Below are positions 27,540 to 28,564 of a DNA stretch of 28,998 nucleotides, piece after piece. The notes beneath the pieces were generated by a model, which made no database searches, was not told where the DNA came from, and worked only from the letters and a program-made list of their open reading frames with translations. Both the position numbers and the translations under genes were made by a program. The stretch lies in assembly GCA_030643515.1 (NCBI GenBank), contig DAOWLH010000100.1:1-28998 (forward strand), read 5' to 3'. The DNA comes from Dehalococcoidia bacterium. GTDB lineage: Bacteria > Chloroflexota > Dehalococcoidia > Dehalococcoidales > DAOWLH01. Positions within the stretch are counted from its first letter, which is position 1, and each line of letters opens with the position of its first letter.

Positions 27540-27849
27540 AGCTCCACCATCTTGCCCGAGGTATTCAAAGGTAAGCCACACTTAGAAGAGCTTCTACAGC
27601 GAAAGCATTCCATCTAGCTAGGTCTTCCCCCATGTAGTAACTTCCTGATAAGATAAGTAAGGTTGACATCAGACATTTCCTACACTATTACTACCATAAT
27701 CCTACATTGAATAGGAATATCTAATTAGTTTATATGCTTACCTATGTAACATAAGGAGGTGCTGATAATCAATATAATGCAATAAGGGGCGGTGAAGTGG
27801 TGTTCATCACTTAGAAGCTCATTAATCAAGATAAGGGGGAAACTAGATA

Positions 27850-28446
27850 GTGAAAAGAAAGGTACTAGGAACAGCACTATCGCTAGCACTGTTATCCGGT
27901 CTGTTTATGTTTACAATTCCAGTTAGTGCTGACCCAGATGGGGCAGCAGACCAGGCAGGGTTTATTAATTTTGAAATCAAGTTAGGTTCGTGAGCAGGTG
28001 GTGCCGACCCTGGATGGGTCGATATATGGGAAGGTGAGCCAGGGGAGTATTTCGGGAGAGAACTGCTTGGTCATGTGAGACATTTACGAAATTATACCTG
28101 ACATTTCACGATAGCCGAAAGTTCTTTCGGCACGGGTACAGCAACTAGTATTTTTAATGTGAACGATAATTACCAAGCGGGAAAACGTCAGGTAATTCAA
28201 ACTTGGATATTTGAGTTTGATGATGAGTATGAGGGTTCGATTACCATAAACCGACGGGCGAATGGTGATTTTCTTGGTTGGAGAAGCACCAACCCAGCAA
28301 GCACTCTTGCTAATTGGGATTACAAAGCACACAGAGTGATAACGGAAGGTACAGGTGATTTAAAGAATTTCCACCTCAGTGACTTTGACAATAATTTAGG
28401 AACCAGATGGTGGTGGGGCATTGGTCACTTTGCCCCAAGGGATTAG
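27850..28446 (+). CDS. secreted hypothetical protein with two in-frame TGA codons: candidate selenoprotein (alternative: pseudogene)
   Basis: SD-like AGGGGG then GTG. MKRKVLGTALSLALLSGLFMFTIPVSA signal peptide. Single frame to TAG at 28444-28446, broken only by TGA at 27991 and 28099, each followed by a SECIS-like hairpin. Confidence 0.6.
28005..28021 (+). promoter_or_regulatory. candidate bacterial SECIS element 1
   Basis: CGACCC-TGGAT-GGGTCG, a perfect 6-bp stem starting 11 nt after TGA 27991-27993; G at loop position 2. Confidence 0.55.
28114..28131 (+). promoter_or_regulatory. candidate bacterial SECIS element 2
   Basis: GCCGAAA-GTTC-TTTCGGC, a perfect 7-bp stem starting 12 nt after TGA 28099-28101; loop begins GT. 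Confidence 0.55.
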
Positions 28447-28484
28447 CCATTGTTAGTTTGAAACTGTATTGATAGTGATAGGGG

Positions 28485-28521
28485 AAAGGGGGCAGGGTTC
28501 AGGCTCTGTCCCTTTTCTTTT
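28485..28521 (+). terminator. intrinsic terminator after the 27850-28446 gene
   Basis: AAAGGGGGCAGGG-TTCAGG-CTCTGTCCCTTTT (13 bp with G.U pairs) followed by CTTTT. Confidence 0.65.
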
Positions 28522-28564
28522 ATAGCCGATGTTTCGTGTTATAATGAAATAGAAGGTAACCGAA

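Follow-up and report, generated by a model that had tools for sequence, protein, structure and literature searches.

The 28,998-nt stretch of Dehalococcoidia DNA analysed here (the window) contains, at positions 27850-28446 of the forward strand, what is almost certainly one functional gene of a cold-seep Dehalococcoidia bacterium, encoding a precursor of ~198 residues with selenocysteine (Sec) at two positions. A signal peptide (codons 1-27) would export a mature all-beta barrel of ~171 residues with a DUF3224/allene-oxide-cyclase (AOC)-like fold, and both UGA codons, at positions 48 and 84, would specify selenocysteine through the canonical bacterial pathway. An intragenic SECIS hairpin of its own, 11-12 nt downstream, would serve each UGA and recruit SelB-GTP-Sec-tRNA(Sec) to the ribosome. 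Judged by its orthologs, the gene is almost certainly functional with both UGAs recoded, and it very likely represents a real new selenoprotein family that uses a known decoding mechanism. Three of its traits are unusual, namely two distant candidate Sec residues each with a SECIS, a non-redox barrel fold, and the lack of Cys relatives.

Reading frame and signal peptide

The segment is read as one frame of 198 codons followed by TAG (28444-28446), with no frameshift. Only two internal stops interrupt it, and both are TGA: TGA1 (27991-27993) is codon 48 in the context LGS*AGG, and TGA2 (28099-28101) is codon 84 in the context NYT*HFT. The features of the frame are as follows.

27833..27839 (+): Shine-Dalgarno-like AAGGGGG, 10 nt 5′ of the GTG start (direct sequence reading)
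27850..28446 (+): complete candidate selenoprotein gene, predicted Sec at codons 48 and 84 (translation, orthologs, dN/dS)
27850..27930 (+): predicted Sec-type signal peptide covering codons 1-27, with the n-region KRK, a hydrophobic core and V-S-A before D
27991..27993 (+): UGA-1, putatively read as selenocysteine 48 (TGA in 6/6 contigs reaching the codon)
28099..28101 (+): UGA-2, putatively read as selenocysteine 84 (TGA in 5/5 contigs reaching the codon)

Cys codons are absent from the gene, Trp is always TGG (eight codons) and Gly is always GGN. A first-pass annotation had extended the frame back to the GTG at 27850 with its Shine-Dalgarno-like sequence and signal peptide, had found the 198 codons broken solely by the TGAs at 48 and 84, and had counted no Cys codon and eight TGG codons; re-reading and translation bear out all of this. 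The signal peptide would be cleaved after VSA and the window protein exported, as predicted from the sequence. Across the family the signal peptide is near-invariant (MKRKILAIALSLALLSSLFVFAxPVSA; alignment A3, columns 1-35); conservation is far lower in the mature domains, at 28-41% identity.

Orthologs and selection on the interrupted frame

An exhaustive HMMER search and two word-index searches recovered orthologs as gene-caller fragments that begin or end exactly where the window gene is cut. The N-terminal fragments (P0010, P0019, P0029 and P0030) have 46-47 residues and terminate with ...FEI(K/R)LG(G/S/K), and the C-terminal fragments are P0001 and P0027. Three JGI metagenomes and two from ENA supplied the contigs. 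Besides the window gene there are four distinct orthologs, all from other metagenomes, with 66-69% amino-acid identity to the window protein, and P0030, which is 72% identical to it, likewise ends at residue 47. The collections searched hold ~5 distinct orthologs, all of them on short contigs. When 60 relatives and 400 genomes of the class were searched in six frames, the same-genus paralog alone was returned, and scanning the metagenome_contigs and genome_contigs collections with the ortholog alignment returned L015 again, or nothing.

When the contigs are translated through the fragment ends, L013/L016, L014 and L015 each keep to one frame throughout, in which TGA occupies both homologous codons, while L012 carries TGA1 on a contig that terminates 11 nt further on. 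The contigs bearing TGA1 are therefore the window, L012, L013, L016, L014 and L015, and both candidate Sec codons co-occur in 4/4 complete orthologs. At neither position does TGA alternate with TGG, GGN, TGY or CGA among the orthologs, which fits a codon with a unique meaning and not genetic code 4 or code 25. The first-pass annotation had named Trp, Arg, Gly or Ser at these positions in homologs as a sign against selenocysteine; the orthologs instead keep TGA at both. In one of them a Cys directly follows the second Sec codon, giving a U-C dipeptide (L014:124-132), and all other orthologs are Cys-free.

The codon alignment gives dN/dS values of 0.12-0.27 for the region 3′ of TGA2, where dS ranges from 0.7 to saturation (>2), and of 0.13-0.56 for the region between TGA1 and TGA2. 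No conserved in-frame start was found 3′ of either TGA in this alignment, and the GTG at 28159 that serves as start in the open-reading-frame track is GCA or GCC in the orthologs. Compared at the contig level, four other cold-seep or marine-sediment sequencing runs contain contigs identical to the window, across TGA1 in X2, X3, X4 and X5 and across TGA2 in X2 and X3. Because the TGAs are conserved, dN/dS is low, no downstream start is conserved and independent runs agree, a pseudogene, a sequencing error and a set of separate small reading frames are excluded as far as sequence can do so.

Candidate SECIS hairpins

Each TGA is followed by a short perfect stem-loop, at the coordinates and distances that the first-pass annotation had given.

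28005..28021 (+): SECIS-like hairpin 1, CGACCC/TGGAT/GGGTCG (6-bp perfect stem, starting 11 nt after TGA1)
28114..28131 (+): SECIS-like hairpin 2, GCCGAAA/GTTC/TTTCGGC (7-bp perfect stem, starting 12 nt after TGA2)

The loop of hairpin 1 is UGGAU (5 nt), at 17 nt from the UGA, and the folding energy is -13.4 kcal/mol; hairpin 2 has the 4-nt loop GUUC, replaced by GUAC in two orthologs, at 19 nt from the UGA, and a folding energy of -9.9 kcal/mol. The bacterial SECIS (bSECIS) criteria, as given in PMC13188914, are a loop of 3-9 nt, a stem of 4-16 bp, a UGA-to-loop distance of 16-37 nt, a G at loop position 1 or 2 and a minimum free energy <= -7.5 kcal/mol, and both hairpins fall within every one of these bounds. 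Such stems are uncommon in the same genome, where perfect stems of at least 6 bp starting 8-16 nt downstream occur at 1.6% of 197,258 sampled positions and those of at least 7 bp at 0.5%; from these per-site rates the joint chance expectation is ~1e-4. A permissive genome-wide scan for TGA followed by a hairpin yielded 99 candidates, mostly spurious, and was dropped.

The hairpins are constrained at the nucleotide level. Among alignment columns with an invariant, degenerate amino acid, and with both hairpins pooled, the codon is identical in all four sequences at 7/8 hairpin columns and at 23/69 columns elsewhere (Fisher p = 0.005). Hairpin 1 of the orthologs takes the form (C)AGAG-CC/GG-A-CUCU(G), in which the CC/GG top and the loop are the same as in the window, and the outer stem C-G-A-C/G-U-C-G is replaced through two double-sided compensatory changes plus a 1-nt bulge. 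Owing to this bulge, RNAalifold on the gap-free coding alignment returned no sensible common hairpin 1, and the comparison rests on individual folds of each sequence. The stem of hairpin 2 is invariant in the orthologs, all synonymous sites included, and accordingly shows no covariation. The compensatory changes that had been proposed as a check on the hairpins are thus present in hairpin 1, at two pairs, and hairpin 2 is conserved only.

Selenocysteine machinery and genetic code

The genome carries the full set of selenocysteine genes whose presence the first-pass annotation had suggested checking: selC, selD, selA and selB lie together on one strand of a single contig (G000 C40:4900-9450; L001-L003, L018), with tRNA-Sec at C40:9354-9448 and a TCA anticodon. 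The selD gene of this genome has its own in-frame TGA at the expected N-terminal site (YSG-U-AAK), and its SECIS, consisting of UGA, 9 nt and a 7-bp stem with the loop CGGGU, serves as a local positive control. TGA is otherwise an ordinary stop, as had been noted for neighbouring genes, and it ends 172/593 long frames genome-wide, 9/24 on the window contig, and the EamA gene directly upstream. The L013/L016 ortholog itself terminates in TGA. Since TGA is a normal stop both in the genome and in this ortholog, an origin from a code 4 or code 25 donor, the remaining circumstance that had been raised against selenocysteine, is excluded.

In its decoding signals the window gene resembles E. coli fdhF and the genome's own selD, all of which have an in-frame UGA, a G+C-rich hairpin within 9-12 nt and a G early in the loop, with selA, selB, selC and selD present and gene callers splitting the gene at the UGA. 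It differs from both in having two UGAs, separated by 36 codons and each paired with a candidate SECIS, and in its predicted product, an exported, non-enzymatic-looking barrel for which no Cys counterpart was found. Conservation of the codons, the hairpins, the sel machinery and stop usage all point to Sec as the residue very probably inserted at both UGAs, and they support the same reading as originally put forward.

Predicted fold and relation to known families

Pfam and NCBIfam models gave no match to the window protein or its 19 relatives in alignment A3, and no family was found by sequence-profile search of the PDB or in the ESM atlas; one paralog gave Dirigent with an E-value of only 0.056. 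An AlphaFold2 model built on a 20-sequence family alignment has a mean pLDDT of 84.4, exceeding 90 for most of residues 60-170. The model consists of a helix at residues 3-18 (the signal), a disordered linker at 22-35 and an all-beta structure thereafter. The first strand of the barrel (residues 39-45) precedes TGA1; Sec48 is placed in a three-residue break just past this strand and Sec84 in the middle of a long strand (76-91). A fold search with the model gave the following matches and scores.

2OOJ (DUF3224): 12.3 (128/134 residues, 2.8 A)
2Q03: 11.8
Dirigent protein: 9.5
Pyocyanin demethylase: 9.3
Allene oxide cyclase: 8.8
Barrel-type Diels-Alderases: about 8

The barrel model is therefore superposable on solved members of the DUF3224/AOC superfamily, and this confident model predicts a DUF3224/AOC-like fold for the window protein. 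The first-pass annotation had made the same guess from a sequence pattern; it holds at the level of fold (2OOJ, 2Q03), and at the level of sequence there is no match to PF11528. Neither DUF3224 (PF11528; PDB 2OOJ, 2Q03) nor the AOC, dirigent, PodA and Diels-Alderase barrels match the window protein in sequence. Unlike these families, it has a predicted signal peptide, two candidate Sec residues and, from the first strand to residue 76, ~30 additional residues. Barrels of the AOC-type superfamily bind small, mostly hydrophobic ligands. We know of no redox role for the DUF3224/AOC-barrel fold, and to our knowledge no selenoprotein is found among the known members of the DUF3224/AOC/dirigent/PodA/Diels-Alderase superfamily.

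Exported or multi-Sec bacterial selenoproteins of anaerobic hosts have been described, including SaoB/SaoX/SaoC, a UxxU metal-binding protein and a selenobacteriocin, and their Sec residues are proposed to bind metals or chalcogens or to pair in a diselenide (PMC13188914; bioRxiv 10.1101/2022.07.06.499078). The window protein shares with them a predicted extracytoplasmic location and an anaerobic host. Their Sec residues lie in short motifs (CU, UxxU, SGUG), mostly with Cys variants; the window protein is unrelated to them in sequence and fold, its candidate Sec residues are 36 residues apart, and no Cys variants of it were found. Comparison by HMM libraries and table excerpts gave no match to the catalogued families (119 families and subfamilies in PMC13188914, 111 in BSepDB). 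The original impression that the protein lies outside known selenoprotein families thus holds against Pfam, NCBIfam and the table excerpts of the 2026 review (PMC13188914).

TGA-free relatives and the absence of cysteine

The relatives that lack the TGAs are secreted, single proteins of 170-217 residues that are 28-41% identical outside shared motifs, and they have in common the C-terminal motif G-x-G-H-(F/W/M)-A-P and the near-invariant signal peptide. Cys at the Sec48 or Sec84 column, which the first-pass annotation had expected in homologs, was found in 0/16 TGA-free relatives in alignment A3 (15 full-length sequences and one partial, P0008). At these columns the relatives have aromatic, aliphatic or polar residues (F, Y, L, W, T, R) or else gaps. 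Neither the HMMER and word-index searches, nor the six-frame searches of 60 relatives and 400 genomes, nor the contig-collection searches returned a Cys ortholog. According to PMC13188914, nearly all selenoproteins have Cys homologs. As no relative has Cys at either column, the Sec pair apparently arose within a single small clade, and not by the usual replacement of Cys with Sec.

The closest setting for comparison is a same-genus Dehalococcoidia metagenome-assembled genome (MAG; G001) in which selA is present. Its paralog (L008, G001:C92) is TGA-free, 209 aa long and 34% identical to the window protein, has three Cys elsewhere in the chain, and is syntenic with the window gene, lying between EamA and radical-SAM genes. 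DNA identity between the two loci is 90% up to 27581 and 84% over 27635-27950 (5′ region and signal peptide), is undetectable over 27951-28488, and is 94% from 28489 on. From this loss of identity between conserved flanks it looks like the part encoding the mature domain was exchanged as a cassette, a view with which the lower G+C content of the di-Sec segment agrees (GC 0.38-0.45 against ~0.55).

Alternative readings of the UGA codons

The alternative that survives best, although it is improbable, is that near-cognate tRNAs read through the UGAs with a standard amino acid (Trp, Cys or Arg) and that the hairpins act as generic stimulators and not as SelB-binding SECIS elements. We know of no established bacterial mechanism in which a hairpin stimulates near-cognate readthrough. 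The absence of Cys homologs at either column would suit such readthrough, as would the F, Y or W that paralogs carry near the second Sec, and Sec insertion is itself deduced from sequence. It is opposed by the full sel cluster and the selD hairpin of the same design, by the agreement of both hairpins with the bSECIS criteria (PMC13188914), and by the fact that TGA never swaps with TGG, TGT or CGA despite near-saturated synonymous sites.

Less probable still is termination at TGA1, which would yield a 47-residue precursor and a secreted peptide of ~20 residues, with the downstream frame untranslated or expressed separately. Gene callers do predict exactly such fragments (P0010, P0019, P0029, P0030; P0001, P0027), but purifying selection acts on the 150 codons downstream within the same frame, no start codon or Shine-Dalgarno sequence is conserved past either TGA, and the TGA-free paralogs exist as undivided proteins of 170-217 residues. 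The downstream part is also predicted to fold into one barrel together with strand 39-45, which is encoded before TGA1.

Least probable of all is a pseudogene, a sequencing or assembly error, or a donor with sense UGA (code 4 or 25), for which the AT-richer island, the swapped cassette relative to the same-genus genome and the MAG's completeness of only 62% might speak, and against which stand the recurrence of both TGAs across five independent assemblies and in four further runs, dN/dS well under 1, TGA as stop in neighbour genes and in the L013 ortholog, the invariable use of TGG for Trp and GGN for Gly, and a divergence of 30% that excludes the orthologs being copies of one contaminant.

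Neighbourhood and possible function

Downstream of the gene lies a strong stem-loop that a simple terminator scan missed, the structure being outside the pattern of that scan.

28478..28523 (+): intrinsic-terminator hairpin and U-tract (-28.7 kcal/mol, z -7.1); core GGGGCAGGGUU..CUCUGCCCC common to all family loci

That the gene has its own downstream terminator, as first suggested, is supported by these values. The core (GGGGCAGGGTT..CTCTGCCCC) is kept after every family gene despite differing contexts (window 28485-28520, L013:985-1012, L015:945-972 and L008). The genome contains only two copies of it, the second being at C82:7385-7403, and near this second copy lies an open reading frame (L031, G000:C82, 1783-2502) for a collagen-like putative lipoprotein with a GPAGPQG repeat. 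In cold-seep runs the core is covered at 5-10x the local depth and numerous contigs diverge to either side of it, which marks it as a shared community element.

Rhodanese-domain genes stand directly upstream of the di-Sec gene in 2/6 orthologous contexts (L012 and the P0030 contig), and none adjoins it at the window's own locus. The product of the rhodanese gene at L012:1245-1958 is predicted to be a lipoprotein and combines a lipobox and a Thr-rich linker with a CxxGxR rhodanese domain, and a Crp/Fnr-type regulator gene also adjoins; the P0030 contig has two rhodanese genes. This adjacency hints at sulfur or selenium transfer outside the cytoplasm or at the cell surface.

Any specific function assigned to the di-Sec protein is tentative. 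In a sulfidic, anoxic cold seep, the two selenols of an exported barrel could form a diselenide cross-link that is stable where disulfides are not, or could provide a selenium-based site for the binding or transfer of metals or chalcogens, and both proposals are made with low confidence. A more elaborate and speculative scheme, to which only a small probability is given, places a U48-U84 diselenide, structural or redox-active, or a Se-S(n)-Se carrier site on the extracellular ligand-binding barrel and has it act with cell-surface rhodanese lipoproteins in polysulfide, sulfur or selenium trafficking within sulfidic cold-seep sediment. If such a scheme were true, Sec would serve as an extracellular cross-link or chalcogen carrier and not as a stand-in for a catalytic Cys.

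Implications

The family would be one that escapes both standard routes of selenoprotein discovery. Searches for Sec/Cys pairs miss it because it has no Cys homolog, and annotation pipelines cut the gene into fragments of 46-47 and 67-95 residues. The finding would place Sec in a DUF3224/AOC barrel, outside the cell, in a fold without a known selenoprotein member, and the gene would be a clean case in nature of a short coding sequence that holds two independent SECIS elements. At the same chromosomal site, the TGA-free paralog provides a ready comparison for the contribution of Sec. Marine-sediment members of the Dehalococcoidia with 46-49 selenoprotein genes are recorded in BSepDB, and the di-Sec family would extend this picture of marine-sediment Dehalococcoidia as selenoprotein-rich.
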